A stretch of 61,565 nucleotides of DNA, filler included, from Chthonomonadaceae bacterium (lineage in GTDB: Bacteria > Armatimonadota > Chthonomonadetes > Chthonomonadales > Chthonomonadaceae): NCBI GenBank assembly GCA_035650735.1. It is 3 parts of 3 records of this genome, joined end to end, with 100 filler letters (N's around TTAATTAATTAA, not from the genome) between each part and the next. Parts side by side here need not be neighbours in the genome. Positions count along the whole stretch, not along the records: positions 1 to 22,665 come from DASRGZ010000212.1; positions 22,766 to 43,137 come from DASRGZ010000213.1; positions 43,238 to 61,565 come from DASRGZ010000216.1. One strand, 5' to 3'. Made by a program: the position numbers and the translations under genes. The notes below the pieces were generated by a model. The model was not told where the DNA came from. It did not search any database and worked only from the letters and a program-made list of their open reading frames with translations. Shown here piece after piece: positions 259-60,665 of the stretch; within the stretch, counting starts at the first letter, position 1; every line of letters starts with the position of its first letter.

Positions 259-395
259 GCCGGGCACGGAAAGTACCCGGCTCTAGGGCGGCTTTGCCGC
301 CAACCGTCCTAGCGGACGGAACACCTGGCTTGGCTTTGCGTCCGCCAGGACGCCTGGCCGCAGGCCCTTGAGACGGGGGGGTTTCAACCCCCGGC
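259..395. repeat. REP-like palindromic element, family B
   Basis: GCCGGGCACGGAAAGTACCCG...GGCGGCTTTGCCGCCAA...GCGTCCGCCAGGACGCCTGGCCG...AGACGGGG...CCCCCGGC; homologous to 42820-43083 and 60488-60665. Confidence 0.85.
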
Positions 396-450
396 GCAAA
401 ACTCATGTTCTGCGTCTGATTGTGTGACTCTCGCAAAGGGGGTTGGAGCC

Positions 451-1194
451 ATGGATTCCACAGTTGCAGCGCAATTGGAACACTTAGAGGAGAAGGGATA
501 TGTCCTGATTCCCGGCGCGCTCTCGCCCGCCGAGGTCGAACGCTGCCGCACGGCGATCAACCAGGCCCGCGCCAACGGTTGGGAAGAGGGATTAAACCAC
601 GTCGGCAATATGTGGTTTGACACGCTGCTCGACCGGATGCCGGAGGTCTTCGGGCCGCTGGTCGCCCATCCGAGCGTCCGCCCGCACCTGGAGGCGCTGC
701 TGGGGCCGCAATGCCAGCTTCGCTCCCTGCGCGCCCACCTCAACCCCGGCCCCTATGAGCAGGAGTGGCACATGGACTTCTACGGGTACTGGCAGCAGGC
801 CGACGGCGCGCGCTACGCCAGCAAGGGGACGGGCATCAACACCACTTTCTACTTCCAGGACAACGGCCCGGGTATCGCCCGCCTTACCTACGTCAAGAAC
901 GGCCACCGCATCCAGCCGCCCGCCGAAATCGTGCATCGGGGCGGTTGGTCCCGCTCGGAGGCGCTCTTTAACGCCTGGTGCAACTCCCTGGAGCAGGAGA
1001 CCATCTACCCGAAGGCTGGAGACTGCGTGCTCTTCTTCTCGCATATTCCGCACCAGGGAGCCAAAGAGGATCCAACCGTCGAGCGCTCTAATGTCGTCTG
1101 CCACTATCAGAACAACCCGTTCTATGAGGGCATTCCCCATGTGAGCGCCGTGCGTCCCTTCCACGGCTCGTTCCCATTGGCGGGCGGCAAGTGA
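451..1194 (+). CDS. Phytanoyl-CoA dioxygenase (PhyH) family Fe(II)/2-oxoglutarate dioxygenase
   Basis: EEKGYVLIPGALS start, WHMD and distal HQG facial-triad motifs; ATG at 451 after GGAG. Confidence 0.85.
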   Translation: MDSTVAAQLEHLEEKGYVLIPGALSPAEVERCRTAINQARANGWEEGLNHVGNMWFDTLLDRMPEVFGPLVAHPSVRPHLEALLGPQCQLRSLRAHLNPGPYEQEWHMDFYGYWQQADGARYASKGTGINTTFYFQDNGPGIARLTYVKNGHRIQPPAEIVHRGGWSRSEALFNAWCNSLEQETIYPKAGDCVLFFSHIPHQGAKEDPTVERSNVVCHYQNNPFYEGIPHVSAVRPFHGSFPLAGGK

Positions 1195-1267
1195 TCAGGA
1201 GCCGAGAAAATTAGGAAGCCGAAGCGGACGGACGCGAGAAAATCTTGTAATCAGGAAAAAGAGAAGC

Positions 1268-2164
1268 ATGAAGCTGAAGATGGCGCATCAAGAGTTAGAG
1301 TTGGGCGGCAAGTACCTGGGAACGCTGCGGGAGGCTAACGATCTCCTGGACGATCCCGCCGCTTTACAGGCCCGCATGGCGGAGGATGGCTACCTGCTGC
1401 TGCGCGGCCTGCACAACAAAGAGAAGGTGCTGGCAGCACGCCGGCTGATCCTGGAGAACCTGGACGCCAACGGCCAGATAGACCGCAGCTATCCGCTGAT
1501 GGAAGGCGTGGTCAAGGAAGGCGCGCGCGGCGCATTTCTCGGCGGCAGCAAGCCGCTGACCCGCAACCAGACGTTTCTGGACCTGGTCGAGTCGCCGGAG
1601 GTCATGGGCTTCTTTGCTCACTTCCTGCAAGGGGACGTGCTGACTTACGATTACAAGTGGCTGCGCGTGGTCGGGCCGGGCGACTTTACCGGCGCTCACT
1701 ACGATATCGTCTATATGGGACGCGGCACGCACAACGTCTATACCACCTGGACTCCCCTCGGCGATGTGCCTTACGAGATGGGGCCGCTGGCGCTGCTGGT
1801 CGGCTCGCATCGCGGCCCCGGCTTTGAGCGTGTCCGCGAGACCTACGGCAAGATGGACGTGGATCGGGACAAGGTGCAGGGCTGGTTCTCCAACGACCCG
1901 CTAGAGATGGTGGATAAGTTTGGCGGGCAGTGGCAGACGACCGAGTTCCAGGCCGGAGATGCCCTTATCTTCGGGATGTTTACCATGCACGGCTCGCTCA
2001 CTAACGTCAGCAACCGCTACCGCATCACCACCGACACCCGTTACCAGCGTGCCGACGAGCCCGTAGATGAGCGCTGGATCGGCGAGAACCCCATCGCCCA
2101 CTATGCCTGGCAGAAAGGCCAGACGGTGACGATGGAGGAAGCGCGCAAGAGGTGGAACGTCTAG
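1268..2164 (+). CDS. PhyH family dioxygenase
   Basis: EDGYLLLRGL, AHYD, TWTPLGD, TMHGS, DTRY motifs. Confidence 0.88.
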   Translation: MKLKMAHQELELGGKYLGTLREANDLLDDPAALQARMAEDGYLLLRGLHNKEKVLAARRLILENLDANGQIDRSYPLMEGVVKEGARGAFLGGSKPLTRNQTFLDLVESPEVMGFFAHFLQGDVLTYDYKWLRVVGPGDFTGAHYDIVYMGRGTHNVYTTWTPLGDVPYEMGPLALLVGSHRGPGFERVRETYGKMDVDRDKVQGWFSNDPLEMVDKFGGQWQTTEFQAGDALIFGMFTMHGSLTNVSNRYRITTDTRYQRADEPVDERWIGENPIAHYAWQKGQTVTMEEARKRWNV

Positions 2165-2178
2165 CAGCGCCATTGCGA

Positions 2179-3702
2179 TCAGGGCTGAGGCGCGCCCTCC
2201 CAGGCCAGGCGTGCGCCTTTGCGAATGGCCGCCACCACGCCGGATACGTTCTTATTGCCTGTCAGCGCCTGCGCATCGCCCGCCAATCCTGCGGCTACGG
2301 ATCGCACGCCCACCCACGTCGTCGCCAGGTAGCCCAGCATCCGGTCGCTTGTATTCTTGAGCGCACAGCCGGCCAGCCGCTGCGCGTTCTCCTCCGAGTT
2401 CCAGCCGGAGGGCCAGACGGCAAAGCCCTGCTCCTGAAAATACTTCACGGAGGGAAAGTCGGCCAGCGGCTCGTAGTGCCAATCACAGATTACGATGTCT
2501 TTGGGAATGAGATGGAGGGCCGGGGCCGTGTCGTTTCGGCTCGATTCCCATTCGCCATAGTGCATCTGCGCGTCGTCCAGCAGGCGGTCGCCCCACATGA
2601 GCATCTGCACCTTGCGCTTGCCGGCCAGATGGCTGTGGTAGTCATTGACAGCCCTGGCGAAAAGTTCTGCGTTCGCCTTGCCCTTGCAGCGCGGACACTG
2701 GCCGAGAATGAAGACCTCATCCATGCCGACATGAAACGCATCGGCGTCGAAAGCGTCGATCAGCTCATCGAAAAGGTCAAAGACGACTTTGTTGACATCT
2801 GGGTGCGAGGGACACCAGCTGCGGCAGTAGATGCCGGGATTGTTGGCGGGCAGGTCGGGCGTCTCGTCGAATTCGGGATGAGCTCTCAGGAACGCCCCGG
2901 TGGTCTCCGCCCAGGACTGGTGCCCCAGGCAGTTGAGCATGGGTATCAGATGGACGTTGTTCTGTTTTGCCAGGGCGCTTAACCTACGGCAATCCTCGAC
3001 GGTCAGGGCGTTGGGGCCGCTGCTAATCTCAGGGTGAGAACGGAACTGGAAGTTATAGTTGATCTCCAGAATAAGCCGGTTCAGGCGATACTGCGGCAAG
3101 AACCGGGTAAGAAGCTGCTCGACGGCAGGCAGATCGTCCCGCGAATTGACGAGAACATGCATCCCGCGCCAGCGCATCGTCGGCCAGTCGGCGATTCGGA
3201 CGGCGGGGATGTCCCAGGAAGCCGCCGCGTCTCCGGCCCTCTCCAGCAGCTTCAAGACGCCGTAATAGGCTCCTGCCGGCTTCTCGGCGGCAATTAAAAT
3301 CCGCTCCGGGGCCACCTCCAGCAGATAGCCCTCCTGGCCCAGCCCGTCTTTAGGCAGCCGGGACTTTAGATCTGCCTCCAACTGCTTCAGGGCCGGGTGA
3401 TCCTTGACCAATCCGACCAGCACAAACGGCCCCTCCGGCAGCCGCGTTTCCGGCGCGGCGGGCTGCATCGCCTCGCTATGAAACTGCTTCCGGCATTGCT
3501 CCAGGAGCGGCTGCGCCGCCTCGCTCCCCGACGCCCGCAGCAAATCGCCCACCAGAATCTGCGGCGCCGAGGTGCAGCGAAAGACGCCCGCCCTCTCCTC
3601 TCTGATTTTTGCTTCCATTCTTATTCCTTCTTCCGCCCTCGCCTGCGCAGACCATAGTCCTATTATCCATGCGGCCATCCCTATTGCCATTTGCCATCTC
3701 AT
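2179..3702 (-). CDS. Secreted glycoside hydrolase family 20 (hexosaminidase-like)
   Basis: Signal peptide from MRWQMAIG; GH20b-like domain (EGYLLEV...IADWP..WRG); LGHQSW and FHVGMDEV catalytic Asp-Glu; start set at 3702 rather than ORF-track 3960. Confidence 0.82.
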   Translation of the reverse strand: MRWQMAIGMAAWIIGLWSAQARAEEGIRMEAKIREERAGVFRCTSAPQILVGDLLRASGSEAAQPLLEQCRKQFHSEAMQPAAPETRLPEGPFVLVGLVKDHPALKQLEADLKSRLPKDGLGQEGYLLEVAPERILIAAEKPAGAYYGVLKLLERAGDAAASWDIPAVRIADWPTMRWRGMHVLVNSRDDLPAVEQLLTRFLPQYRLNRLILEINYNFQFRSHPEISSGPNALTVEDCRRLSALAKQNNVHLIPMLNCLGHQSWAETTGAFLRAHPEFDETPDLPANNPGIYCRSWCPSHPDVNKVVFDLFDELIDAFDADAFHVGMDEVFILGQCPRCKGKANAELFARAVNDYHSHLAGKRKVQMLMWGDRLLDDAQMHYGEWESSRNDTAPALHLIPKDIVICDWHYEPLADFPSVKYFQEQGFAVWPSGWNSEENAQRLAGCALKNTSDRMLGYLATTWVGVRSVAAGLAGDAQALTGNKNVSGVVAAIRKGARLAWEGAPQP

Positions 3703-3707
3703 CGGGC

Positions 3708-3802
3708 CTCTATATCCTTCCCAGTTGCTTACGGCTGCCGTTACGATGCCAAAGCCGTTCCCGACCGTTCCGTCTCTATATCCTTCCCAGTTGCTTACGG
3801 CT
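3708..3802. repeat. Exact 29-bp direct repeat pair separated by 37 bp
   Basis: CTCTATATCCTTCCCAGTTGCTTACGGCT at 3708-3736 and 3774-3802. Confidence 0.9.
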
Positions 3803-3925
3803 CGATTCGGAGAACAGGGCCGGTGTTCCTCCCTGCACAAGGAAAATAGCAGGGGGCTTGGAGAATAATCTTCTTGAATGGCGCTCTTCCCAGCGCTCTC
3901 TTCCCGGCGGTAAAGGAAACTGTAT

Positions 3926-4303
3926 ATGATGAGGCTTTGGATTCTCTTAGGCGGCATCAATGCCTTTCTTGCGGTCGCGCTCGGCGCGTTCGGCGCGCAC
4001 TCGCTGAAGGCACGATTGGTCCAGACGGGCCAGACGGAGGTCTATCAGACGGGCGCGCACTACCACCTGATCCACGCGCTGGCCCTGCTGTTGATCGCGA
4101 TCCTGGCGGAGCGATGGAGAAGCCCCCTCGTGGAGTGGTCCGGCTGGCTGCTGTTCGCCGGGATCGTCCTCTTCTCCGGGAGTCTGTACGCGCTGGCGAT
4201 CAGCGGAGTGAGGCCGCTTGGCGCGATCACGCCGCTGGGCGGCCTCTGCTTTCTGGCCGGCTGGGCGCTGCTGGTGGTAGCGGCGCTTAAAGAGCCGCAT
4301 TGA
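3926..4303 (+). CDS. DUF423 (YgdD/TMEM256) small membrane protein
   Basis: ALGAFGAHSL, YHLIHALALL, LFSGSLY, GAITPLGG motifs. Confidence 0.92.
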   Translation: MMRLWILLGGINAFLAVALGAFGAHSLKARLVQTGQTEVYQTGAHYHLIHALALLLIAILAERWRSPLVEWSGWLLFAGIVLFSGSLYALAISGVRPLGAITPLGGLCFLAGWALLVVAALKEPH

Positions 4304-4316
4304 TGGGGAGGGTGGG

Positions 4317-5285: not shown

Positions 5286-5372
5286 AATCTACCATTGGCA
5301 CAGCCATCGCAACCCCGGAATTCGCCGCTTCTAGAGCAGGCTCTATCGCTACGGCCCTCCCCAATAGCCCGT

Positions 5373-6245: not shown

Positions 6246-6457
6246 CGGAATACCTCTCCTGAGCCAGGGTAATTAATGCCTGTTGCAGGCAAAAGATTTG
6301 CCACAGTTGGAATCTATTCCTTCTCAGGGACTAACCGTCAAATCGGCTGACTGCAAGCATTTCGATCTCTTCACGCGTTCTATACTTCCACTGTGGGAAG
6401 GAACGAAGACAAAGCAGAATCGGGTATAAAGAATCCTACTAAATCCTGGGAGGGAGC

Positions 6458-9757: not shown

Positions 9758-9950
9758 ACCTAACCCCCCCTCCCCCTTCCCTACTGCGTTCGCTACGCTC
9801 ACAGGGAAGGGGGGCCTCAGCTTCTCTTCCCCTACAGCCCTCACCCCCTGCCCCCTCTCCCGCAGCGTGGGAGAGGGGGCAGGGGGTGAGGGTGTCCCTA
9901 TACCCTACACCCTATCCCCTATACCCTGCACAAGGGGCCGGGGGTGAGGT
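9758..9950. repeat. Composite family A palindrome cluster with heptamer tandem repeat
   Basis: Perfect 24-bp arms CCCTCACCCCCTGCCCCCTCTCCC / complement (9838-9892) inside outer ACCTAACCCC...GGGGTGAGGT; 5 degenerate CCCTATA-type heptamers at 9896-9930; between convergent genes. Confidence 0.85.
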
Positions 9951-10862: not shown

Positions 10863-13345
10863 CGGGCCAGACCCTCCTTGCGCCGCGCCGCCTCCATCCG
10901 CCAGAGAATAGCCTCCAGCAGCCCGGTCTTATCCGCGTCGGCGTCTTCCAGGTCAAGGCGGGCCGACTCGCGCCACATCGCGGCCTTGCGCGTATTGCGC
11001 TCGTCGGTGGGGATGCGCGCGGGCAGCGCATCGTAGGGGCGCAGATCGGGCGCGGCGGTCCAGACATCCAGAATGGGATCGGCCAGGTCGTCATACTGGC
11101 TCATCGGCGGCAGATGCAGCAGGCGCTCGATAGTGGCATAGAGGCCGGCCTGGGAATAGTGGTGGGAGGTGATCGCGCCGGGGCGCACCCATGGGCTGGC
11201 GATAAGCAGGATGTTGCGGTGGGCATCCACATGGTCGCGCCCATCCTGGCTGTCGTCCTCGCAGACAAAGATGGCGGTATCGCGCCAGTAGCGGCTGTGG
11301 CTGATAGCTTCGATGATTCTGCCGGTCGCCACATCGTTATCGGCGACCATGGCACGGGGCGTGCGGCTGCCCAGGCGGGCCCCGGCGGTGTGATCGTTGG
11401 GAAGCCAGATATAGGAGAAGGCCGGGAAGAGGCCGCTCTTGAACTCGCGCAGCCACTCCTCGGCCCGCTGCGTATCCGGGTACTCCAGATCCCAGCCGCG
11501 ATAGTGGGGATCATACTTGTCGGCGAGTCCCGGCAGCGGCCTGCCGCCCTTGCCGATGCGCACGACATCACCGTACATCCGGCAGGAGACGCCGTGGCGG
11601 ACGCAATGGTCTAAGCTGTAGCCGAGGGCCGGGTAGGAGATAGGCGAGAGAGGGGAGTCGGCCAGGCGCCCGCGCGGGGTATAGTAGGCCATCCAGGTCT
11701 TCTCGACGTAATCCGGGCAGTTGGCGCCAAGCGTCCACTGGTGGCCCTGCGCGCTGATCTCGCCATCGCTATAGAAGTTATCGCCGGTGGCGAAGCGGTC
11801 AGCGAGCGCATGCAGGTTGGGCGTGACCTCGGCCCCGAACATCGTCAGGGACGGGTCGCCGTTGCCCTGCGGGCGGTCGCCCAGCACCTGATCATATGTT
11901 CGGTTCTCCCGCACGATCAGGACGCAGTGCGTGATAGGTGGGAGGCGCTTATCCGCTTGCGACCCTGCTCTCGCTCCAGAGAACCTAACCCCCCAGCCCC
12001 CTTCCCTGGGAGGGAAGGGGGTAACCCGGCTTCTCCCTTCTCCTGTTCTTGAGTAAGGAATGCTCTGACTTCTGCTCTCCCTTCTCCCTTGCAGGGAGAA
12101 GGGTCGGGGATAAGGGGAGATAGAGGAGGACGGAAGAGCCTGAGAGTGAGGTGCTCTCCCCTCCCCTGTTCTTGGGGGAGGGGTAAGGGGGTGAGGGCTA
12201 TATCCGTTATTGCGTGCGACCTGCTCCAGGCCGTTCTTGGTTGCCTGGGTGGGGATGGCCGAGAGCGTGCCGTTCATCATGTGGCCGATATAGCCACCGT
12301 TCGCGTTGGGGCCGCTGCCGACGCCCTTGCTGTTGATGACGTAGAGGGTCTGGCCATCGCGCGTGCAGAGCAGGTTGGTTGGGTACCAGCCAGCGGGATA
12401 GGCGTTTTGCGGCTTGCGGGTACGGGTATCGTAGGCGACGACGGCGTTGTTGCCGGCGAGCGCAACGTAGAGGGTTTTGCCGTTGGGGGAAAGGGCCAAG
12501 CCATTAGGGATGCTGCCGTAGGGCGCGTTCGGGTAGGGGCCGACGGCAATATCGGCCAGCTTCCTATCCGCCGCCGTATCCAGGATAGAGACGGTATCGG
12601 TATTGGCGTTGGCGACGTAGGCGCGCTTGCCGTCGGCGGAGACGACGACCGCGCAGGGCAACCCGCCCGTGGGAATAGTTTTGAGCCGGGCGCGCGTGCG
12701 TGTATTTAGCACGGAGACAGTCCCCTCGCCCCAGAGCGTCACGTAGGCTTTGCGCCCGTCGGGAGTGAGCGCGATGGCGAAGGGAAGCAGCCCCGCCGTG
12801 ATCCGTCCCGTTTCGGCGTGTCTGACCGTGTCCAGCACGGCGACGCGCGTGGAGAGATTGCAGGTGACGTAGAGCGTCCTGCCGTCCGGGGCCAGGGCCA
12901 TGCCGGTCGGATAGCCGAGGATGGGAATAGAGGGCGCGGGCGTGAGTTTACCGTCCGCAAAGGAAAACTCCAGCACCGCCTGCGCGCCGCCGCCTGCCGC
13001 CCAGACCCGCCTTCCATCCGGGGAAACGACCACGCCGTTGAAGACGATCCGCACGGGCAATGTCTGTCGGATCCTGCCGGTTGCCGCCTCGACGACTTGC
13101 AGCGATTGCGGCCCCGCGCCGTTGTTGACCACGATCAGGTACTTGCCATCCGGCGTGGCGGCCAGGCCGAGCGGAAAGTTGCCGAGCATGGTCTGCCTTC
13201 CGGCGGGCGTAATCAGGCGCCCGTTGGGCAGTATCCAGGTTCCCGGCTCTGCGGCGACCGGGCCGGTGGGACGATCTCCGGCGGGCGTCTCGGCCCAGGC
13301 AGGCAGGCCAATAAGCAGCGCAAGCACGATACCAAGCAGGCGCAA
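10859..13345 (-). CDS. Secreted YVTN/YncE beta-propeller plus phosphoesterase, with in-frame repeat insertion in the linker
   Basis: Signal peptide, propeller repeats (SPDG/TPDG), ENRTYDQVLGD, LPNDHT, EDDSQDGRDHVDAHR. Confidence 0.88.
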   Translation of the reverse strand: MRLLGIVLALLIGLPAWAETPAGDRPTGPVAAEPGTWILPNGRLITPAGRQTMLGNFPLGLAATPDGKYLIVVNNGAGPQSLQVVEAATGRIRQTLPVRIVFNGVVVSPDGRRVWAAGGGAQAVLEFSFADGKLTPAPSIPILGYPTGMALAPDGRTLYVTCNLSTRVAVLDTVRHAETGRITAGLLPFAIALTPDGRKAYVTLWGEGTVSVLNTRTRARLKTIPTGGLPCAVVVSADGKRAYVANANTDTVSILDTAADRKLADIAVGPYPNAPYGSIPNGLALSPNGKTLYVALAGNNAVVAYDTRTRKPQNAYPAGWYPTNLLCTRDGQTLYVINSKGVGSGPNANGGYIGHMMNGTLSAIPTQATKNGLEQVARNNGYSPHPLTPPPRTGEGRAPHSQALPSSSISPYPRPFSLQGRRESRSQSIPYSRTGEGRSRVTPFPPREGGWGVRFSGARAGSQADKRLPPITHCVLIVRENRTYDQVLGDRPQGNGDPSLTMFGAEVTPNLHALADRFATGDNFYSDGEISAQGHQWTLGANCPDYVEKTWMAYYTPRGRLADSPLSPISYPALGYSLDHCVRHGVSCRMYGDVVRIGKGGRPLPGLADKYDPHYRGWDLEYPDTQRAEEWLREFKSGLFPAFSYIWLPNDHTAGARLGSRTPRAMVADNDVATGRIIEAISHSRYWRDTAIFVCEDDSQDGRDHVDAHRNILLIASPWVRPGAITSHHYSQAGLYATIERLLHLPPMSQYDDLADPILDVWTAAPDLRPYDALPARIPTDERNTRKAAMWRESARLDLEDADADKTGLLEAILWRMEAARRKEGLAR
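11983..12198. repeat. Family A palindrome cluster inserted in frame within the phosphoesterase gene
   Basis: ACCTAACCCCCCAGCCCCCTTCCC...GGGAAGGGGG...GGGGTGAGGGC; about 216 bp, translated as PHPLTPPPRTGEG...PFPPREGGWGVR. Confidence 0.85.
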
Positions 13346-13416: not shown

Positions 13417-13714
13417 GCTCTTGTTGCTGCGAATGGATTCGCCTGGTTACAAGGGTCGAGAACGGAAAGGCCTAGGGCCGGCCCAAAGCTATTCAGTTTT
13501 CCTTGCGTGCGGCTAAAGCCGCAGCAACAAGAGCACAAAGTCGCCCTCCGGCGACTGCCCTCACCCCCGCCCCCTACTGCCAGGGGCGGGGCTACAATGG
13601 TTCGCCCCTCCGCCTTGCGATCCACGCTGCGGCAGAGGGAAGCAACGAACCCGCGCAGGCGGGTTTAGTGCCTTGGTTGCCGCGAATTTATTCGCCCGGT
13701 TACAAGGGCCGGCC
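13417..13714. repeat. REP-doublet-like cluster (family C) containing a family A element that contains a family D unit
   Basis: Direct copies GCGAAT(GG/TT)ATTCGCC.GGTTACAAGGG in 13418-13458 and 13671-13711; inverted GCTCTTGTTGCTGC/GCAGCAACAAGAGC; A at 13557-13640; D at 13576-13620. Confidence 0.8.
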
Positions 13715-17020: not shown

Positions 17021-17542
17021 AAGCCTATCTGACAAATGTCATCTCAACCAGAGGACAATCGCCGCCAATGTCACGAAGGCCAAGTAATGGCTCGCTCGCT
17101 TGTTATAGCGGGTTGCCACTCGGCGCCACTGTTTGAGACATAAGATACAGCGCTCTACCACGTTGCGCTCGCCATAGCGCTCCGGGATAAAGACCACCGG
17201 ACGCCCACCGGCCCGCCCCTTCTTGCGGCGGTGCGCGATCTGGGCGTCGCGTGCGGGGATCAAATGCCTTATGCCCCGCCGACGCAGCAGTAGGCGACAG
17301 CGGGGATAACTGTAGCCTTAGTCCGCTTTCAGACCAGGGCGCGCCGGTTCGATCCACCCAAAGGATGCCGTTAATCACCGTGTGATGGTCTTTATCAGGA
17401 TGGCCTCGCCGTCCCGAACGTTGCGGGGGCAGCAAGGGGACAAGACGCTCCCACTGAGCGTCGGTCAAGTCACCACGAGCCAGGAACGTCTTACCTCCGA
17501 GAGGATATTACGAGATTCAGGCTCGATTTGTCAGATAGGCTT
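17021..17542 (-). mobile_element. Internally deleted IS5-family element (non-autonomous)
   Basis: Perfect 17-bp TIRs AAGCCTATCTGACAAAT / ATTTGTCAGATAGGCTT, TA duplication in CTA/TAG context; transposase N-terminus (LTDAQWERL..INGILWVDRTGAPW) joined to C-terminus (AD*GY...RNVVER..LKQWRRVATRY). Confidence 0.9.
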
Positions 17543-22665: not shown

Positions 22666-22765
22666 NNNNNNNNNNNNNNNNNNNNNNNNNNNNNNNNNNN
22701 NNNNNNNNNTTAATTAATTAANNNNNNNNNNNNNNNNNNNNNNNNNNNNNNNNNNNNNNNNNNNN
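22666..22765. other. Artificial contig spacer
   Basis: 44 N + TTAATTAATTAA + 44 N. Confidence 0.97.
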
Positions 22766-25306: not shown

Positions 25307-25393
25307 GCCCTCACCCCTAACCCCTCTCCCACGCTGCGGGAGAGGGGAGAGTACCTCACTTCCTGGCCCTTCCCACTTCGGGAGGGGTTTTTT
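25307..25393. repeat. Family A palindrome (uninterrupted) followed by hairpin and T-run, possible terminator
   Basis: GCCCTCACCCCTAACCCCTCTCCCACGCTGCGGGAGAGGGG then CCCTTCCCACTTCGGGAGGGGTTTTTT. Confidence 0.8.
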
Positions 25394-36947: not shown

Positions 36948-37068
36948 GCCCTCACCCCCTGCCCCTACTGCCAGGGTCGGCCCTGCAACGGTTCGGGCCA
37001 CTGCCAGGGTCGGCAAGGGTACGGCCCTTGCCTCCGCCTAGCGATCTACGCTGCCGGGAGAGGGAGAG
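36948..37068. repeat. Family A element interrupted by two family D units
   Basis: GCCCTCACCCCCTGCCCCT[ACTGCCAGGGTCGG..ACTGCCAGGGTCGG..CTCCGCCTAGCGA]TCTACGCTGCCGGGAGAGGG. Confidence 0.82.
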
Positions 37069-37126
37069 CAACGGCAAGGCATAGCGGAGGAAACCGCACG
37101 TAGCCGCCGGTCGGCCTTCCGTATCT

Positions 37127-38452: not shown

Positions 38453-39989
38453 GGCGCGCTCCTCTTGCCGGTCGAGGGCCAGGCGCCTCCAGTCCCGGCA
38501 GCGCCGCGCCCTGGGCATGGTCAAACTCTGCCGCCGCCGTGTGGAGATCATAGAGCGCCTGTAGCTCCCGTTCACGCGCGGCCCGGACCTCGCGCTGCGC
38601 CGATTGGACCTCGATCACCGTCCCGCGCCCAACCTCATAGGCTTTTTCGGCCACCGTCGCCGTCGCCTGCGCCCCGCGCACCTGCGTCTGCGCTAGCGCC
38701 ATCCGCGCCTGCGCCTCGCGCATCTTCTGCCACGCCTGAGTCACGTCCAGCGCGATAGCCTGTCGCGTATCCTCCAGCAGCGCCTCCAGCCGCTGCGCCT
38801 GCGCCTGCGCCTCGCGCGTATCCAGCTGCGCCTTGCCGCCGTCTAGAATGGGCCAGCGCACCTCCAGCGTCGCCGCCAGATAATGCTCATGGACGAATGC
38901 GCTCGGGGTTTGTTCCGTCATCTGGCCGCGCACGCTCCATGCCGGCTGCGACTGTACTCGCGCCAGCGACACGCCCGCGCGCGCCGCCACCAGATTCTGC
39001 TCCAGGGATACCAGCTCCAGGCGGTTGCGCAGGGCGGCGGCGATGGCGGCCTCGGGCGCCTCCGGCACGACCGGAAGGGCCGCTACCGGCTCCAGGCTAA
39101 CCGGCGTCGAGAGCGGACGGCCCAGCGCGCGGTTGAAGGCCAGCCGGGCCAACGCCAATCCACCCTCCGCCTGCGTCACGCCCGCCTGTGCCTCCGCCAC
39201 CTGCGCCGCGACCGTCTCCGCATCTACCGGCTTGGCAAAGCCCGCCGCGATCTGGCGCTGCACCAACGCCTGATAGCGCTGCGCCGCCGCCAGGCCGTCC
39301 TGCGCCGTCCGCACGCCCGACTCGGCCCGCAGCACATCCAGATAGGCCTTCCGCACCGACAGCGCCAGGTCGGCCAGCGCCTTGCGGTAGTCCAGCGCCG
39401 CCGCATACGATTGGGCCGCATAGCGCTGCCGGGCCGCGCCCAATCCAGGCCGGTAGACCACCTGCTCCAAAGTCAGATCCAGCCGGGCCACTCGCTCCGG
39501 CAGCACCACCGCCTCGGTCTCGTCCGGGCGCGGGAAGGTAACGCGCGGCCCCTGGAGCGTGCCGGAAGCCGTCGCATTCAGCGTTGGGCGTGCCACCGGC
39601 TTCTCTCGATCCGCCTGCGTCTGCGCGGCCTCCCAGGCAAACCGCGCCGCCCGCGCCTGCGGACTCTGCCGCAGCGCCGTCTCTACACTCTCCGCCAGCG
39701 TCAGCGGTTTCGCCGCCTCCTGCGCCCCCGTCACCGACGCAATAAAGAACAAGAGAAAGAGAATATAAACCACCCGCTGCGCTAGAGCCACGGAGACACA
39801 GAGGAAACACGGTGAAAAGACACAAGCAAAAAACCCTTTGGACAGGATGAACGGGATGAACCGGATTTCCAATAACCGCCAAGCCTCAGGTCTGTGGGTT
39901 TGTCTAATCCTGTAAATCCTGTTAATCTTGTCTAATTGTCTTTGTTTTTCTCCGTGAATTCTCCGTGTCTCCGTGTCTCTGTGGTTCAT
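38442..39989 (-). CDS. TolC family outer-membrane efflux protein with repeat-derived N-terminal extension
   Basis: LTLAESVETAL, VRKAYLDVL, WPILDGG, YEVGRGTVIEV; ATG overlaps the upstream TGA (ATGA). Confidence 0.85.
   Translation of the reverse strand: MNHRDTETRRIHGEKQRQLDKINRIYRIRQTHRPEAWRLLEIRFIPFILSKGFFACVFSPCFLCVSVALAQRVVYILFLLFFIASVTGAQEAAKPLTLAESVETALRQSPQARAARFAWEAAQTQADREKPVARPTLNATASGTLQGPRVTFPRPDETEAVVLPERVARLDLTLEQVVYRPGLGAARQRYAAQSYAAALDYRKALADLALSVRKAYLDVLRAESGVRTAQDGLAAAQRYQALVQRQIAAGFAKPVDAETVAAQVAEAQAGVTQAEGGLALARLAFNRALGRPLSTPVSLEPVAALPVVPEAPEAAIAAALRNRLELVSLEQNLVAARAGVSLARVQSQPAWSVRGQMTEQTPSAFVHEHYLAATLEVRWPILDGGKAQLDTREAQAQAQRLEALLEDTRQAIALDVTQAWQKMREAQARMALAQTQVRGAQATATVAEKAYEVGRGTVIEVQSAQREVRAARERELQALYDLHTAAAEFDHAQGAALPGLEAPGPRPARGARHGR
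39787..39986. repeat. Nested palindrome (family E)
   Basis: Outer CCACGGAGACACAGAG / CTCCGTGTCTCTGTGG; inner GACAGGATGAACGGGATGAACCGGATT (39841-39867) / AATCCTGTAAATCCTGTTAATCTTGTC (39906-39932). Confidence 0.85.
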
Positions 39990-40750
39990 TCGCGTTCTTC
40001 CGGCAGGGTTTGCAGGAAAGTTTCGAGGAAGGCGGCCAGATTCCTTGCTGCCCGTGCCGAACGCAAGCCCAACCGCGCGAGTGCCGGGATCTTCCAGGGG
40101 CGGAGGAGGGTTGCGTGCAGCACGGGACCCGTGTACACGTTGCCGTCGGGGTCAGCAAGGGCATTGAAATCCAGCGGCATCGCGTCCTCCGGGCCGTCGG
40201 TGATGGCGCGCACGGCCAGCCAGGGAATGCCGTGCGCCTGAGCTACTCGCGCCGCGCCCGCCGTTTCCATGTCTACGGCGAGGGCGCCGGTGCGCCGGGC
40301 CAGAGCGCGTTTTTCCTCGGGAGAAAGCAGCACGCGAGCGGCCGTGACCAGCGTTCCGCGCCGCAGGGAAAGGCCAGACAAGCGAACGGACTCCGCTGCG
40401 CAAAGCAGATCGGAGTCCGCGGAATAGATCGTTGCGGGGGTGTGGGCGTCTTCCGACTCATCCATCACCCTATCGGCCAGGACAAGCGTTTCCGGGCGCA
40501 CTCCCTGCGCCAACCCGCCAGCAAACCCACAGATAAGCAGATACTTTATGGCGTCCGGATGCGCCGCAAAAAGCTGGGTCGCGGCCCGCGCAGCGTTCTG
40601 CGCTCCCGCTCCCGAACTGGACACGATGACGCGGCTTTCTGGAACGCGCCTTCTTTTCTGGAAAGACCACGCCTCCTCCGGCAAGGCAAAGAGGAGACAA
40701 CCCTTCTGCAAAGGGGCGGCCTGCGGCAAGGGTTCCTCCGGGCCGGTCAT
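39986..40750 (-). CDS. Nucleoside phosphorylase, HpnG-like (PNP_UDP_1)
   Basis: ICGFAGGL, AVDMETAG, AVRAITD; next to hpnA-like and ispH genes. Confidence 0.75.
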   Translation of the reverse strand: MTGPEEPLPQAAPLQKGCLLFALPEEAWSFQKRRRVPESRVIVSSSGAGAQNAARAATQLFAAHPDAIKYLLICGFAGGLAQGVRPETLVLADRVMDESEDAHTPATIYSADSDLLCAAESVRLSGLSLRRGTLVTAARVLLSPEEKRALARRTGALAVDMETAGAARVAQAHGIPWLAVRAITDGPEDAMPLDFNALADPDGNVYTGPVLHATLLRPWKIPALARLGLRSARAARNLAAFLETFLQTLPEERE

Positions 40751-42784: not shown

Positions 42785-43137
42785 GCCGGGCCATGAATGA
42801 CCCGTCTGGCCCGCATCCAGCCGGGCACGGAAAGTACCCGTCTGGTGGGCGGCTTTGCCGCCAAGCGACTGCAAGGGACGGCGCTACCACTGCAAGGGTC
42901 GGAACTACGCACGCTCGACTGCCAGGGACGCCGCTCAACGGTTCGCGGCTCTGCCTGGCGATCTCCGCCTGGCGACACTCGCGCCTCTGCCTTGCGACTG
43001 CGGACGGAACCACCCGGCTTGGCAGGGCGTCCGCCAGGACGCCTGGCCGTAGGCCCTCCAGACGGGGGTTTTCACCCCCCGGCGTGCCGGGGCGGCTATG
43101 CCTGCGGACGGAACCACCTGCCTATCGGGAGGTTGCT
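42785..43137. repeat. Multi-level nested repeat: B within B, containing D within D within D
   Basis: Outer B starts 42785 and resumes after 43083; inner B 42820-43083; D openings at 42868, 42889, 42918 and closings ending 42961, 42975, 42997. Confidence 0.82.
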
Positions 43138-43237
43138 NNNNNNNNNNNNNNNNNNNNNNNNNNNNNNNNNNNNNNNNNNNNTTAATTAATTAANNNNNNN
43201 NNNNNNNNNNNNNNNNNNNNNNNNNNNNNNNNNNNNN
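43138..43237. other. Artificial contig spacer
   Basis: 44 N + TTAATTAATTAA + 44 N. Confidence 0.97.
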
Positions 43238-51496: not shown

Positions 51497-51725
51497 GCCC
51501 TCACCCCCGACCACTCTCCCAACGCTGCGGGAGAGGGGAGCGGCCCCCACCCCCTTACCCACTGCTAGGGTCGGGGCTGCAATGGACTGCAAGGGTCGGC
51601 AGGGCTACGGCCCCTGCCTCCGCCTTGCGGCAGCCTTCCGCCTCGCGATCCCCAATTCTAGGGGAGGGGAGAGCAGAAGCCGGGTCCCCCCTTCCCTAAG
51701 AGGGAAGGGGGCCGGGGGTTAGGTT
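51497..51725. repeat. Family A cluster containing D nested in D
   Basis: Outer D 51561-51648, inner D 51586-51629; A arms GCCCTCACCCC...GGGGGTTAGG. Confidence 0.85.
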
Positions 51726-53642: not shown

Positions 53643-53729
53643 TCGCTAGATTTCAGAATGGGGGTGTCGGCGAAAGAAAGCCAACACGGTTTAGTCATTG
53701 GAGTTTCCCAGGAGGAGCGCCCGGAGAAG

Positions 53730-55880
53730 ATGCGACGGATCGGTTTCAGCCTGCTTGTCTTGATCGGTATCGGCCTGTTAGGAAGGGCTCACGAGCCCGG
53801 AGCCGCCGCCTCTACAGTGAAAATGCCCTCACCCCCTGTCCCCCTCTTCCACGCTGCGGGAGAGGGGGACCCGGCTTCTCGGTTCCCCCCCTTCCCTAGC
53901 AAGGGACGAGCGGATAGGGAAGGGGGCCGGGGGGTTAGGCCCACCGGGGCTGTGGTAAAGTTCAAAGACCTGGGCGATGCGGCGGACACAGACCCCACTT
54001 CTCCCATTTTCCTTCCCCAAAACTCCGGTCGGTGGTCCAGCGACCCGTCTGCCGAAAACCCCGACCTCCCGGATGGCTGGGAGCCGTATGCCCTTCAGCG
54101 TCAGGGCAAACCCGGCTGGATCACGCTGCGCGCAGTGCTGGGAGACTACTACGGTGATTTCTCTGTCCATACGGACGGCCTTGCGCTTACGGGGGATGGG
54201 TACAACGCCGTCGCTCTCTGGCTGGCCGTGCGCTATAAAGATACCGTGCTCTCCCCGGAACGCGATCCCTACTACGGCTCAAGGACGTTCCCCTGGGAAG
54301 GAAAATCGGCGGGCGTCTGGGCGTTTACCGGCGTGCCCGATCCGCGCGCCGGGGATGCTCCCTGGGTGCGGCTGGGAGAATTAGGCGGGCGCAACGATAA
54401 GGTGTGGCGCACGGCGGTCTATCAGATCGCCCCCCATACGATCCGCGCTGAAAACGGGCTTTTCAAGTTCTCCCTGGGCTACCCGGCGCCGTTCGGTCGC
54501 TCCACCCTCTACGGCGACCTGCGCGTGGATTGGATCAAGCTCTCCTCTGCGCCGGTCCGACCCGACCCGGATCGCAGGGGCTTCTTTCCGGCAGCGCGGC
54601 CCAGTAAGTTTGCCTCCTTGCCGCGCTCAGGGTTCCTGGTGGACGGCAAGCCCTTCTTCCCTATCATCCTGGATGTCAACGATGGCGAGAGCAGCGCCCG
54701 CGAGGACTCGTTCCAGCTCTGGAGGGATACGGGGTTCAACGTCATCGGCTATTACGAGAACGCCGACAGCCAGTATTCGGGAGCCGGGCGCTCTTACTGG
54801 GGCTACAAAGACCCCATCGTGGATAACGGACGCCGCTTCATGGGGTTCGGCAACTTTCTGGATGCCTGCCAGCGGCACGGCCTCAAAGGAGCGATCTTCC
54901 TCTGGAACTCCATGCGGCGCTACTGGATACTCAACACAAAGGCAGACCGTTGGGCCAGCGATCCGCTTGGCGGCAAAGACTGGCCCAGGCCCGACGGCAC
55001 ATTCGCCGGAATGGCCGCTCAGATCTTCAAGGTGGTGAACGCTTACAAGCAGCATCCGGCCTATTTTGGAATAGACATCAAGGATGAGATCGATCATGAG
55101 GCCCCGGAATGGGGAGCCCCCATAGAGGGCATTCGCTACCTGTACGCCGGCATCCAGCGCCTGGATCCGGATCATCCCCAGTGGGTGAATTTGATGGGCT
55201 ATCGGCGGCTAATGTGGCTGCATAACCAGGTAGCCGACGACGGTATCGAGAGCTTTGATCGCTATCCCGATGGGAAGGAGACGCCGTTCAGCTAGGTCGG
55301 GGAGTGGATGGAGGAGATCAAGCGCCAGAAGGGAGACCGCTGCATTATCCCCATTCATAGCATCATGGAGTTCCCGCCGGTGGAGAACGTGCGAACGGCC
55401 ACCTGGATCAGCCTGATACACGGCGCGCAGGGATTGAACTACTTCGTCTATCAGGGAGGCAGCCTGGACCATCCCGCCTGGTGGCGGGAGATGCAGGCCA
55501 TGCTCTCCCAGGTCAAGGAAACAACCCCGGCGCTGCATCGCTCGACCAGCTCCCTCCTGGGCTACTCCTGGGCGACAACAGAAGGGTCACGCGACTACTA
55601 CCATATCGAGCACACGGCCTCTGGCGCGCTGGCAACCGATAACGACAGGGTAGATGCCATGCTGCGCCGTCTCAAGGCAACCGAGCAGCGCTATCTTTTT
55701 GCCATCAACACGCGGGCCGAACCGACGCAAGCGGCCTTCCGTGTGAAGGGCTTATCCGCAGGAACGCCCATTCGGGTGCTGTTTGAGAACCGCACCCTGA
55801 CAGCCACCGCTCAGGGCCTTCAGGACGACTTCGCCGGGTACCAGCTTCATATTTACGTCTGGGGACCGACCACGAGATAG
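53730..55880 (+). pseudogene. Secreted glycoside-hydrolase-like protein split by one in-frame TAG (55293-55295)
   Basis: Signal peptide; VDGKPFFPI, TGFNV, KDE, SFDRYP; ORF 55308-55880 is in the same frame (TWISLIHGAQGLNYF) directly after FS*VGEW. Confidence 0.65.
53825..53940. repeat. Family A element in frame just after the signal peptide
   Basis: GCCCTCACCCCCTGTCCCCCTCTTCCACGCTGCGGGAGAGGGGG...GGGAAGGGGGCCGGGGGGTTAGG read as PSPPVPLFHAAGEG...REGGRGVR. Confidence 0.85.
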
Positions 55881-55984
55881 GGTTCCGTCCGCACTTAAGA
55901 CAAAGAGCACCTAACACAACCCGGTCTAGCCCTTGCCTTATGGGAGAAACAAGGGAGGTTGTGTTAGGCACTCAAAGGAGAGAG

Positions 55985-56890: not shown

Positions 56891-57843
56891 CCGTCGCGGA
56901 GGTACAGCGGGTTCGGGTGATCGATTCGCACACGGGCGGGGAGCCGACGCGCGTGATCATCGCGGGCGGGCCGGATCTGGGCGGGGGCAGCATGGCCGAC
57001 CGACTGAACGTCTTCCGCACGCAGTACGACGCCTTCCGCTCGGCGGTGGTCAACGAGCCGCGCGGCTCGGAGGTTCTGGTCGGCGCGCTCCTGCTGGAAC
57101 CCTCCGATCCCTTCTGCACGGCGGGGGCGATCTTTTTTAACAACGTGGGGTATCTGGGCATGTGCGGGCACGGCACCATCGGCCTGATCACGACGCTGGC
57201 CTATTTGGGGCGGATACAGCCGGGAGAGCATCGCATAGAAACGCCCGTCGGGGTCGTGACGGCCCGGCTGCACGAGACTGGCGACGTTTCGGTTCAGAAC
57301 GTTGCCAGCTATCGCTATCGGAAAGCAGTGCCGGTGGAGGTGGCCGGACAGGGCCGGGTGGTCGGCGACGTGGCCTGGGGCGGCAACTGGTTCTTCCTGG
57401 TCGCGGAGCATGGGCAGGAGATCGCGCTGGGCAACGTCGAGGCGCTGACCGACTTTACCTGGCGCATTCGCCAAGCCTTGCAGCGGCAGGGCGTGACCGG
57501 GCGCGGGGATCAGGAGATAGACCATATCGAGCTGTTTGCGCCTTCGCCCAGGCCGGGGGTGCATAGCCGAAACTTCGTGCTCTGTCCCGGCAAAGCCTAT
57601 GACCGCTCGCCCTGCGGCACCGGCACCAGCGCCAAGCTCGCCTGTCTCTACGCGGACGGTAAAATCAGGGAGGGAGAGGTCTGGCGGCAGGAGAGCGTCA
57701 TCGGGAGCGTGTTTGAGGGCAGCGTGCGCGTGGTCAACGGCGAGGTGATCCCGACCATTCGCGGCAGCGCCTATGTCACCGCCGAGTCCACGCTAATCCT
57801 CAACCCCACCGATCCCTTCTGCTGGGGCATCCGCGAGAGCTAG
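56887..57843 (+). CDS. Proline racemase family, likely 4-hydroxyproline 2-epimerase
   Basis: [26 protein letters not shown] (Cys/Cys pair); ATGA coupling to the upstream gene. Confidence 0.9.
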
Positions 57844-57859
57844 CCGCTATGCCCATTCT

Positions 57860-57963
57860 GGCCCCCATCCCCAACCCCTCCCCCAAGAACAGGGGAGGGG
57901 AGAGTCAGAGCTTCTCGGCTCCCCCTCTCCTAAAATTGGGAGAGAGGGATAGGGGTGAGGGCC
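57860..57963. repeat. Family A palindrome cluster inside the hydroxyproline operon
   Basis: CCCCTCCCC-CAAGAACA-GGGGAGGGG and CCTCTCC-TAAAATT-GGGAGAG..GGGGTGAGGGC. Confidence 0.8.
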
Positions 57964-58000
57964 GCAACCGAAAACAAAATGCCCTGAACCAGGAGGCTGC

Positions 58001-59260
58001 ATGTCCGGGTCTAAATCGGTTCTCATTATCGGCGGGGGCGTGATCGGCCTCTGCACGGCCTATTATGCTCTGCAGCGGGGCCACCGGGTAACTGTGCTGG
58101 AGCGGGGTGGACCGGGCCATGACTGCTGCTCGCTCGGCAACGCGGGTATGGTCGTGCCCAGCCATTTCGTGCCGCTGGCGGCGCCGGGCATGGTAGGGTT
58201 GGGCCTGCGGATGATGCTGCACCCCGAAAGCCCCTTCTGGATTCGCCCGCGCCTGAGCCGCGACCTGCTGGAATGGGGCTGGCGGTTCGCCCGCGCGGCC
58301 AACGCCGCCCATGTGGCCCGCGCGGCCCCGCTGCTGCGCGACATGAACCTGGCAAGCCGCCGCTGCTATGAAGAACTAGCGGAAGAGTTCGGCAATGCCT
58401 TCGGCCTCGTCCAGAAGGGGATGCTCATGCTCTGCAAGTCCGAGAGCACGCTGCGGGAAGAGGCCCATCTTGTCGAGCAGGCCCGGCAGTTGGGGCTGAG
58501 CGCCGAAGTGCTCACGCCGGAGCAGGCGACAGACCTCAACCCCGGCCTTCAGATGGATATTGCCGGGGCCGTCTATTTCCCACAAGACTGCCATCTCGTG
58601 CCGCCGCGTTTTCTGTCCGTATTGCAGCAGGGATTGGAGCAGGCGGGAGCCTGCTTTGCCTGGTCTACGGAGGTCACCGGCTGGCGGACGGGCAATGGCC
58701 GCGTCCAGGCCGTTCAGACCACGCAGGGAGAATGGACGGCGGATGAGTACGTTCTGGCAGCCGGGTCCTGGTCGCCGGGCCTCGCGCGCGGTCTGGGGCT
58801 GCGCCTGCCCTTGCAGGCCGGCAAGGGCTACAGCCTTACCCTGCCCAATCCCCGCCAGAGGCCCGCTACCTGCGCGGTCCTTACGGAAGCGCGCGTGGCC
58901 GTCACGCCCATGGGAGAGGCGCTTCGCTTCGCCGGAACCCTGGAGGTTACCGGGCTGGATCCCTCCATCAATCCGCGTCGGGTGGAGGGCATTCTCAAGG
59001 CCATCCCGCGCTATTTGCCGCAATTTAGCGCCGATGATTTGCGCGGCGTGCCGGTCTGGAGCGGACTGCGCCCCTGTTCAGCCGATGGAGTGCCCTATAT
59101 CGGGCGCACCGGGCGTTACGCGAATCTGTGCATTGCGACGGGCCACGCAATGATGGGCCTGAGCTTAGGGCCTATCACCGGCAAACTGGTGGCGGAAATC
59201 CTCTCCGACGAGCGCCCCTCCCTCCCTCTGGAGGCCCTAAGCCCGGAGCGATACGCTTAA
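58001..59260 (+). CDS. FAD-dependent D-amino acid dehydrogenase (DadA-like), likely D-hydroxyproline dehydrogenase
   Basis: IIGGGVIG, SLGNAG, GKGYS, WSGLRP, TGHAMMGLSLGP. Confidence 0.85.
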   Translation: MSGSKSVLIIGGGVIGLCTAYYALQRGHRVTVLERGGPGHDCCSLGNAGMVVPSHFVPLAAPGMVGLGLRMMLHPESPFWIRPRLSRDLLEWGWRFARAANAAHVARAAPLLRDMNLASRRCYEELAEEFGNAFGLVQKGMLMLCKSESTLREEAHLVEQARQLGLSAEVLTPEQATDLNPGLQMDIAGAVYFPQDCHLVPPRFLSVLQQGLEQAGACFAWSTEVTGWRTGNGRVQAVQTTQGEWTADEYVLAAGSWSPGLARGLGLRLPLQAGKGYSLTLPNPRQRPATCAVLTEARVAVTPMGEALRFAGTLEVTGLDPSINPRRVEGILKAIPRYLPQFSADDLRGVPVWSGLRPCSADGVPYIGRTGRYANLCIATGHAMMGLSLGPITGKLVAEILSDERPSLPLEALSPERYA

Positions 59261-60408
59261 CGCAGGGAATCGTGAATCGCTTGAACCTGCTCCTGGGCGA
59301 GGTGGCCGATGTAGATGATGTCCATAGACGCGCCGGTCGGCAGGGGGATCTGCCAGCGCTGAATGCTGCGCCGAAAGGCCGGCCTCCGGATGCGCCCCAG
59401 AAGCGGCCTGGCATTGGCACGCGCCGGGCGCTCGAATAGGCTGAAGGCGGTGACGCCATCCGTATAGCGCAGCAACACGGCCTGGCGTTCCGGACGCGGC
59501 TTGGAGCCGGACGAAAACACCCAGACGCCGCTCAGGTGGAAGCCGGGCGGCAGCACGCTCGGCTCCAACGGCGCGAAGGACAGCTGGGGCCGCGCTTCCT
59601 GCATGGAGCCGTAGCGCTGCGCGTTGGGCGGGAAGAGGATGTTGGGCGTGGCGGTCTGTAGGAACGGCGGCTCGAAATCTTTCGGGCGGACGTCGGCGGC
59701 AGGACCGATGGCAATGCGGATGAAATACGACCGCGAGACCAGCCCGCGCGGCCCGGAGATCTCCTGCTTGAGCTTGATCCCGGTTTCCGGATCGATCCAG
59801 AGCTTGCTTTCAAACCCGCGCAACCCTCCGGACGGAGTCGCAATTTCGATGATGGCGGCGTTACGCCCGGCGACGAGTTCGTTGCCAACGGCCATGACTG
59901 CGAGCCGCTTTTGCCGGATGGCGTTGGCGATCCGGCGCTCCTGGCCAGATAAGTCTTGCTGCGTAGGCCAGAAGGCGATATCGAGCGTGTTGGTCCGTTT
60001 ATGATAGTACCGGTACTGATTGGGAGCGATCAGCATCACGTCCCCGGCTAGATTGGCCGGCTCCAGAAAATCCATGCGCACACGGCCGCGTGTATCGCCC
60101 CGAATCCACTGCCGCGACATGCGCTCGTTGCGCTCCGTCACCTGCTCGCCCGCGTAGGGCGCCAAGGGTCGGAACATCCGCTTGAGCAGGGCGAGGGCCG
60201 CAGGGGCCTGCGGGACGGCGCGCGGAGGCTGGGGAGCCTTCCGGCGCAGGCCGTGCAGCGTCCCTGCCTGCAAGGCATGCTGCGCGTGTCCGCTGCCGTA
60301 GCGTGGGAAGCGCGCCTGGCCGTGCGCAAAGGGCAGAGCGATCAGGCAGAGGCAGGCTGCGGCTGTCAGCCAGAATCGGCGCCGCTTCCGTTCTAGATGC
60401 CCTGTCAT
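59257..60408 (-). CDS. MucB/RseB-like periplasmic sigma regulator
   Basis: Signal peptide; VAGRNA, LWIDPETG, LPPGF, YTDGVTAFSLFE; downstream of the anti-sigma gene. Confidence 0.7.
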   Translation of the reverse strand: MTGHLERKRRRFWLTAAACLCLIALPFAHGQARFPRYGSGHAQHALQAGTLHGLRRKAPQPPRAVPQAPAALALLKRMFRPLAPYAGEQVTERNERMSRQWIRGDTRGRVRMDFLEPANLAGDVMLIAPNQYRYYHKRTNTLDIAFWPTQQDLSGQERRIANAIRQKRLAVMAVGNELVAGRNAAIIEIATPSGGLRGFESKLWIDPETGIKLKQEISGPRGLVSRSYFIRIAIGPAADVRPKDFEPPFLQTATPNILFPPNAQRYGSMQEARPQLSFAPLEPSVLPPGFHLSGVWVFSSGSKPRPERQAVLLRYTDGVTAFSLFERPARANARPLLGRIRRPAFRRSIQRWQIPLPTGASMDIIYIGHLAQEQVQAIHDSLR

Positions 60409-60487
60409 AGCAAAGGGCAGGCGTTTTCGCCCGCCCTCCCAATTGTCCAGATGCCATTGCTCCATAATTCTCTGCAAGACATACCGT

Positions 60488-60665
60488 GCCGGGCGATGAA
60501 TGACCCGTCTCTGGGGCGGCTACGCCGCCAACCGTCCTCCGGACGGACCTCACCCCCGGCCCCTCTCCTTACGAAGGAGAGGGGTGGCCGCAGGCCGGGG
60601 TGAGGTAAGGCATCCGCCAGGACGCTTGGCCGTAGGCTACACAGACGGGTAATTTATTGCCCGGC
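60488..60665. repeat. Family B element with a family A element nested at 60547-60606
   Basis: GCCGGGCGATGAATGACCCGTCT..GGCGGCTACGCCGCCAACCGTCC..[ACCTCACCCC..GGGGTGAGGT]..CATCCGCCAGGACGC..AGACGGGTAATTTATTGCCCGGC. Confidence 0.85.

Follow-up and report, generated by a model that had tools for sequence, protein, structure and literature searches.

Short palindromic repeats nested in one another in a Chthonomonadaceae genome, and a 45-nucleotide hairpin element found in place of two bases of its hosts

Several described bacterial systems tie extragenic palindromes to small enzymes. The transposase TnpA-REP cuts and rejoins single-stranded DNA (ssDNA) near the hairpins of repetitive extragenic palindromes (REPs) (Messing et al. 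2012, PMC3479197), and the class 3 TnpA-Y1 genes (Quentin et al. 2018, PMC6006769) as well as the TIRYT genes (Di Nocera et al. 2013, PMC3733652) lie between repeated hairpins of atypical type; insertion of REPs into other palindromes has also been reported (Di Nocera et al. 2013, PMC3733652). In the Ssn/SRM system the flanked gene instead encodes a non-HUH single-domain nuclease with its own hairpin repeat (Chenal et al. 2025, PMC11893778). Repeats may likewise serve as targets, as insertion sequences (ISs) target REPs (Tobes and Pareja 2006, PMC1525189) and SDR5 of Nostocaceae inserts precisely into HIP1 (PMC5861425, PMC4390886). The present analysis concerns a stretch of 61,565 nucleotides (nt), hereafter the window, from a Chthonomonadaceae bacterium (assembly GCA_035650735.1), in which a hairpin element of about 45 nt, designated D, lies inside palindromic repeats of other families, designated A, B, C and onward. 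The composites appear to be a two-tier nest of selfish DNA, in which D was likely joined in as ssDNA by an enzyme borrowed from its hosts, most likely one of their IS200-like Y1 (HUH) proteins; this reading is given a probability of about 60%.

The source assembly (G000) comprises 6.52 Mb in 224 contigs with 63% GC and is 97.6% complete. The window itself is made of three separate contigs (C212, C213 and C216) joined by N-linkers at 22666-22765 and 43138-43237, so that it is not meaningful to speak of one 60 kb region. A previous sequence-only reading had described the palindromic families A to E in the window, and the elements it listed are all in place, with nine loci of A, three of B, one doublet of C and one locus of E. 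The families are not confined to the window either, but occur genome-wide at about 50 to 500 loci each. Compared with an order-4 Markov control scaled to genome size, the counts are 248 against 0 for A, 66 against 0 for B, 102 (both strands) against 0 for C, 831 against 24 for the left arm of D, 604 against 26 for its right arm and 271 against 2 for the E2 unit of family E, an excess of at least 20-fold throughout. Once merged, A and D each amount to about 500 loci, E2 to 260, B to 240, J (a further family) to 210 and C to 145, with some chance matches among them. The elements are also non-autonomous, as had been proposed, and vary between lineages.

The simple D unit is 44-45 nt long including its last base (274 of 343 units) and has non-inverted termini. 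Its inner helix covaries: across the 55 copies of a helix test, all five pairs change on both sides, and 88% of cells are paired against 72% in shuffled sets (none of 500 as high) and at most 56% in slid controls, while one outer pair is formed in only 27 of 48 distinct sequences. Only two one-sided G-U changes were seen, and their near absence suggests selection on DNA rather than on RNA structure. In the window, complete units start at 13576, 37000, 42918 and 51586 according to a covariance model in whose training set these four were included, and outer arms are found at 36967, 42868, 42889 and 51561. The unit at 13576-13620 (+ strand) lies in the 5′ stem arm of an A unit in place of two bases. 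At 36948-37070 (+ strand) an A unit carries a D, with its outer left arm at 36967 and its outer right arm missing, which in turn contains the complete D at 37000-37044. Likewise, one unit of the A cluster at 51497-51720 carries a D (51561-51648) that contains another (51586-51630), and a three-level D-in-D-in-D occupies 42868-42997 (+ strand) within a B element, the innermost complete unit being 42918-42961. An A unit without any insert at 25307-25349 (+ strand; fold z -3.5) serves as the empty reference.

This confinement to other repeats holds genome-wide. A host motif lies within 30 nt of 315 of the 361 outer D sites (87%), as opposed to 15.8% of 8000 non-coding positions, and the remaining 46 sites are nearly all host variants when inspected by eye; a motif-free k-mer test gives 164 of 361 (45%) against 5-7%. 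[quoted passage not shown] The commonest host is A, with at least 196 of the 361 sites. D is also a frequent host of itself, since 200 of the 378 outermost composites have two or more left arms. The assignment of 116 of the 378 sites to coding DNA was discarded because the ORF caller reads through GC-rich repeats. Within the host hairpins, D is located in the 5′ arm at 153 of 307 sites and in the 3′ arm at 29, whereas controls are symmetric; the bias is read as a pyrimidine preference combined with host architecture and not as proof of an enzyme measuring from the loop.

The sequence-only reading had pictured hairpins as safe landing sites. That selection alone would confine D to them is doubtful in view of the MITE, which is 81 nt long and present in about 100 near-identical copies in unrelated-looking flanks (for example in contigs C17, C22 and C44; none in the window): an element of such size is tolerated in other spacer DNA and rarely shares a gap with D, which weakens an explanation by selection alone. 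The MITE has target duplications of 8-9 nt, seen by eye, and D differs from the MITE type in having neither terminal inverted repeats nor a target duplication and in the loss of two bases.

Could the composites have been created by assembly, or by random overlap in limited intergenic space? The repeats do break the assembly into its 224 contigs, one composite adjoins a contig end, and some of the runs and assemblies used for checking may be the source of the window itself and thus not fully independent. On the other hand, unitigs of runs X2, X5 and X6 bridge the C-A-D junctions from unique DNA up to 13616 with zero differences, and the A-D-D junction is bridged to 37006-37015 in runs X2 and X6, where the unitig comparison at 80% likeness is noisy. 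Among metagenome loci, 116 of 131 match the assembly, nearly all at 99.5-100%. Collapse, which the sequence-only reading had named as a possible refutation, is therefore an unlikely source of the composites; the tested junctions already contradict it, and with D nesting at 87% against 16% in the control, artefact and chance together have a virtually negligible probability.

The boundary between D and its host is unusual. A clean-insertion model was rejected, since no boundary gave more than 5 empty sites out of 372, and a gap model was adopted in its place. Of 213 flank pairs tested, 66 have an empty counterpart, and 59 of these show a two-base gap; among outermost composites compared with shorter anchors (257 tested), a two-base gap is found in 66 of 124 matched pairs, the next class holding 13. 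In 60 of the latter 66 pairs, both missing bases are pyrimidines on the strand as written. The net gain is 43 nt, and sites followed by GG or TG favour 45 nt replacing two bases over 46 nt replacing three. The absence of target duplication claimed earlier is thus correct for D, although the event falls short of a clean insertion. Which two bases follow D depends on what stood there before: CT and GG are kept, CC is either kept or turned into TC, and CG is nearly always turned into CA, so that in 357 cases CA follows D 211 times and CG three times. A related genome (G010), with seven copies that share a single site, shows this CG-to-CA change too, as does a metagenome contig in which the host is E1. 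Motif avoidance was considered as its cause and rejected, as the relevant 5- and 6-mers occur at 0.88-0.98 of expectation genome-wide.

These junctions bear directly on the main rival explanation, according to which D entered each of 15-20 host sites once or a few times and then spread through copying of the hosts and gene conversion between D arms, without being independently mobile today. D sites do lie at fixed positions in each host, the bases after D are set by the site class more than by the D subtype, one composite of an inner and an outer D recurs at least 27 times, and the seven copies of G010 share one site. However, for filled copies exact 9+9-nt matches are found among many different empty variants of the hosts; of 359 composites taken with 12-nt flanks, 346 are unique strings, and each target class holds several D subtypes. 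The loss of two bases is moreover a recurrent feature of unrelated hosts and also occurs in other organisms, and the D arms available for conversion share only 12-13 nt. Descent from few founders is for these reasons considered unlikely.

Another alternative is an RNA route, in which D would be transcribed, reverse-transcribed and primed at a nick. Such a route has reportedly been suggested for cyanobacterial SDR elements, and loss of target bases is known from R2 retroelements; the fixed length and conserved fold of D would be in line with it. Against this, the assembly contains no RVT_1 match at its 97.6% completeness, G-U wobble substitutions are nearly absent from the D stems, and Rfam gives zero matches in the window, which makes the route very improbable.

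The hosts themselves appear to form the first tier. Families A, B, C, E and several others are very probably gene-less copies of modules in which a small gene, mostly for a nuclease or transposase, stands between an arm and its inverted copy, with D as the second tier on top of them. In the source genome, one Y1 gene (C166:80026-80526) stands between B arms and another between K arms, GxxExxY genes (C161, C18 and C52) are flanked by E1 and E2 arms, and two four-helix-bundle genes by F4 arrays. E-type tandem units lie beside five of the six GxxExxY matches by eye, on both sides in three. A genome of the same genus (G001) contributes four Y1 genes enclosed by B, J, C and N arms, the C arms being those at L231; altogether 17 of 27 Y1 loci of relatives were inspected. 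For A, 30 DUF559 loci of relatives, drawn from 42 listed matches, were compared with 97 control windows: the motif occurs at a distance of up to 220 nt in 17 of the former, seven of them with it on both sides, and in two of the latter. The enzyme classes suggested earlier were all located between matching repeats, with Y1 TnpA belonging to B and C, DUF559 to A, GxxExxY to E and the four-helix bundle to the further family F4. The flanked genes would move their own repeats in trans. At C52:7587-8075, an IS200/IS605-type element seems to interrupt the GxxExxY gene, and a close copy of it is present in G001 (L234).

The Y1 proteins score above the IS200 cut-off (NF033573) and below that for RAYTs (NF047646; at most 31 bits against 80) and carry a Y---Q motif. 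Judged by these profile scores, the motif and the flanking arms, the Y1-linked hosts fit the class 3 TnpA-Y1 or TIRYT type. Like class 3 TnpA-Y1 genes and TIRtrons, families B, C, J, K and N place one Y1 gene with Y---Q between long arms in inverted orientation, have several such genes per genome and also occur as gene-less doublets in high copy number; unlike them, the present doublets have other families captured in the spacer and D in the stems. An intact catalytic HUH and Tyr, which characterize that group, was not found in the Y1 genes of the source genome, and the catalytic motifs look intact in the matches of G001. Similarity to REPs, REPINs and BIMEs with their RAYTs (PMC3116915, PMC3479197) is seen in the extragenic hairpin doublets, the hundreds of copies, the lack of duplication and the one enzyme gene per repeat type. 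In contrast, the Y1 proteins described here are not canonical RAYTs, and the genes paired with A, E and F4 are not of the HUH class; D departs further in its non-inverted arms, fixed length, two-base replacement and want of a flanked enzyme gene of its own in the searches made. The logic of Ssn/SRM fits the pairs DUF559-A and GxxExxY-E as well, but the enzyme folds differ, and the D-bearing genomes searched yielded no small gene of the GIY-YIG type.

A mechanism for the second tier can be outlined from these observations. D would enter while a host hairpin is extruded and under processing, two nicks made two bases apart would account for the lost dinucleotide, and D would be joined in as ssDNA by a cut-and-rejoin enzyme borrowed from its hosts. 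That D is moved as ssDNA by a dedicated or borrowed nuclease or transposase is on balance the favoured view, while the choice of Y1 for this enzyme, taken by itself, is only tentative. A broader proposal would make D a gene-less 45-nt hyperparasite of REP-like elements that hijacks the ssDNA step of unrelated systems (Y1, DUF559), swapping two bases and editing the next CG, and would make the DUF559, GxxExxY and four-helix-bundle genes three undescribed classes of repeat-mobilizing genes beside RAYT and Ssn; this must be regarded as rather doubtful.

GIY-YIG homing nucleases typically cut with a two-base stagger, and the lost dinucleotide could also be produced by a double-strand break if a small nuclease, either GIY-YIG or PD-(D/E)XK such as DUF559, cut the host hairpin to leave a two-base 3′ overhang and D were patched in at repair with removal of the overhang. 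The commonest host A is linked to DUF559, and Ssn genes of the small GIY-YIG type have hairpin repeats of their own on their flanks, with the adjacent ssDNA being cut (PMC11893778). Yet Ssn cuts ssDNA only, D enters Y1-type hosts as readily as A, and the sole GIY-YIG match in the source genome and in G001 lies within a frame of 618-632 amino acids, small GIY-YIG genes having no match in the source assembly. In addition, the repeats differ at the eight small GIY-YIG loci that were inspected in other families. A double-strand break is accordingly quite unlikely as the route of D.

The distribution of D shows that it is common to a few lineages and has undergone a burst in the source genome. A strict pattern finds 251 copies there and 2, 1 and 1 in three of 40 relatives, and a loose one finds 331 there and at most one, the same as in the control, across 400 genomes of the phylum. 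By the covariance model, with 92 candidates scored per genome, there are 10 copies in G001, seven in G010, two in G019 and none in 64 others. In the 15 metagenome loci that do not match the source genome, D lies within another repeat in every case by eye, and no D was found in viral contigs. A search for an autonomous form, with a gene between the left and right arms, by long-range arm pairing listed 10 pairs, none of them convincing. Separately, the left arm of D is joined to its own reverse complement in a perfect fold-back at C115:3821 and C223:6365 of the source genome, a form that template switching would be expected to leave. Two assemblies (L089 and C133 of the source genome) have different copy numbers of a 21-nt tandem unit.

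A number of observations weigh against movement of D as ssDNA by a borrowed Y1 enzyme. First, IS200/IS605 insertion is not known to lose target bases. Next, the Y1 genes of the source genome at C166:80026-80526 and 12616-12951 look damaged, by replacement of the second catalytic His with Pro and by a frameshift, respectively, which contrasts with the abundance of matching repeats; similarly, a stand-alone DUF559 gene is absent from the source genome in spite of the approximately 500 loci of A. No D-flanked gene was found in the source genome, whose assembly is incomplete, nor beside the 14 D copies of G001 and G010, nor by eye among 14 metagenome loci in the matches listed. Presence/absence polymorphism of D was seen neither in other assemblies nor in the contigs of six runs, so that current mobility of D is at best putative. 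On the side of the junctions, 147 of the 213 flank pairs are without an empty counterpart, and almost half of the 124 matched pairs preferred another gap, in the setting of cytosine runs and short anchors. The mechanism as outlined does not account for the CG-to-CA change, and CG after D is kept in four of the eight G001 copies compared. Finally, the invariance of the D arms in the helix test is partly built in by the search pattern.

Nesting among the hosts is selective. The sequence-only reading had the families insert into one another as a general rule, which is not supported; most host-host pairs share gaps below the null expectation. Ratios of observed to expected gap sharing are 2.4 for A-C, 3.2 for A-F4, 1.5 for A-J and 6.3 for E1-E2, whereas A-B gives 0.23 and the Y1-type families give 0-1 among themselves. 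The order is directional genome-wide, with C-A-C in 13 cases against one of A-C-A, A-J-A in seven against none of J-A-J, and E1-E2-E1 in three against none of the reverse. The inner host occupies the central spacer of the outer doublet, where it may have been inserted or may have been captured by two outer arms. The doublet of C at 13429-13697 is an example, with an A unit at 13557-13640 (+ strand; unitigs of three runs reach 13616 from unique DNA) in its spacer. The A described earlier as lying in C is present there, but between the two inverted arms and not in a C hairpin. Similarly, the A palindrome (60546-60608) in the spacer of the B doublet at 60487-60665 (+ strand) is real as claimed but exceptional, being the only one in 48 B spacers. 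The orthologous gap in G001 holds neither A nor B. G001 is too diverged from the source genome to delimit the boundaries of host repeats.

The remaining B loci are simpler. That at 259-395 (+ strand; fold z -4.4) is a doublet of two inverted arms with a short spacer and no insert, whose arms are those flanking the Y1 gene at C166:80026-80526. The element at 42785-43085 (+ strand), which adjoins the contig end, has a doubled left hairpin (42785 and 42820); the supposed insertion of B in B at 42820 is unsupported, the second left hairpin standing behind a truncated one. The E locus at 39766-39990 proved more complex than described, as an E1 inverted pair encloses an E2 inverted pair (about 39840-39931) that had been missed. 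The presence of an E locus is thus upheld, while its units turn out to be tandem repeats of 7-9 nt that are palindromic only as an inverted pair. Further loci of A comprise clusters at 9759-9950 and 11984-12197 and pairs at 53825-53939 and 57861-57961.

Two of these carry an insert in a hairpin loop, a 21-nt module at 9783-9803 and one at about 53898-53917, and the first cluster also includes a 7-nt tandem array of F4 (9896-9927). The four-base loops of A are often replaced in this way by modules of 19-21 nt, which likewise occur where A arms adjoin DUF559 genes in G001, G012 and G019, and G001 has a D within a loop module within A. SDRs are reportedly 21-27 nt long, similar in size to these loop inserts. 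On the opposite strand, two of the three module types show a GNA triloop, whose middle base varies, bordered by GA steps, a combination known from stable DNA mini-hairpins. With SDRs, D shares the insertion of a very small module at exact positions of other palindromes and a compensated structure; it differs in being about twice as long, in replacing two bases, in its many hosts and in nesting in itself. ISs that target REPs are likewise mobile elements with repeats as their target, but they are kilobases long and bring their own transposase (PMC1525189), and no IS110 match was found in the source genome.

Apart from a fragment of an IS5-family transposase at 17103-17468, the genes of the window, as seen in 35 scanned ORFs, serve ordinary metabolism and transport. 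ORFs called across the linkers are artefacts, the linkers containing an artificial spacer between unrelated contigs.

Both the Y1-linked hosts and the insertion of repeats into palindromes are already known in kind, and the useful additions are the map of repeats to enzymes and the two-base replacement. Nesting of this kind is absent from the available parts of PMC3116915 and PMC3184786. A literature search, which did not extend to subscription journals, found no description of repeats linked to DUF559, GxxExxY or four-helix-bundle genes, nor of a two-base-replacing, self-nesting hairpin, a D-like element or an Armatimonadota repeat of this sort. How REP-like repeats multiply is a long-standing open question, and eight repeat-gene pairs side by side in one lineage, with intact-looking genes in a same-genus genome, permit a direct test of enzyme-repeat specificity; three of the paired protein families (DUF559, GxxExxY and the four-helix bundle) are without a known function on repeats. 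D in turn offers hundreds of internal comparisons of filled and empty sites, and its junction signature of two lost bases, no duplication and a frequent CG-to-CA change must be explained by any proposed chemistry. If the interpretation is true, a 45-nt element with other hairpins as its sole integration targets would count as one of the smallest targeted mobile DNAs, and D would be a lead for compact ssDNA-editing tools.

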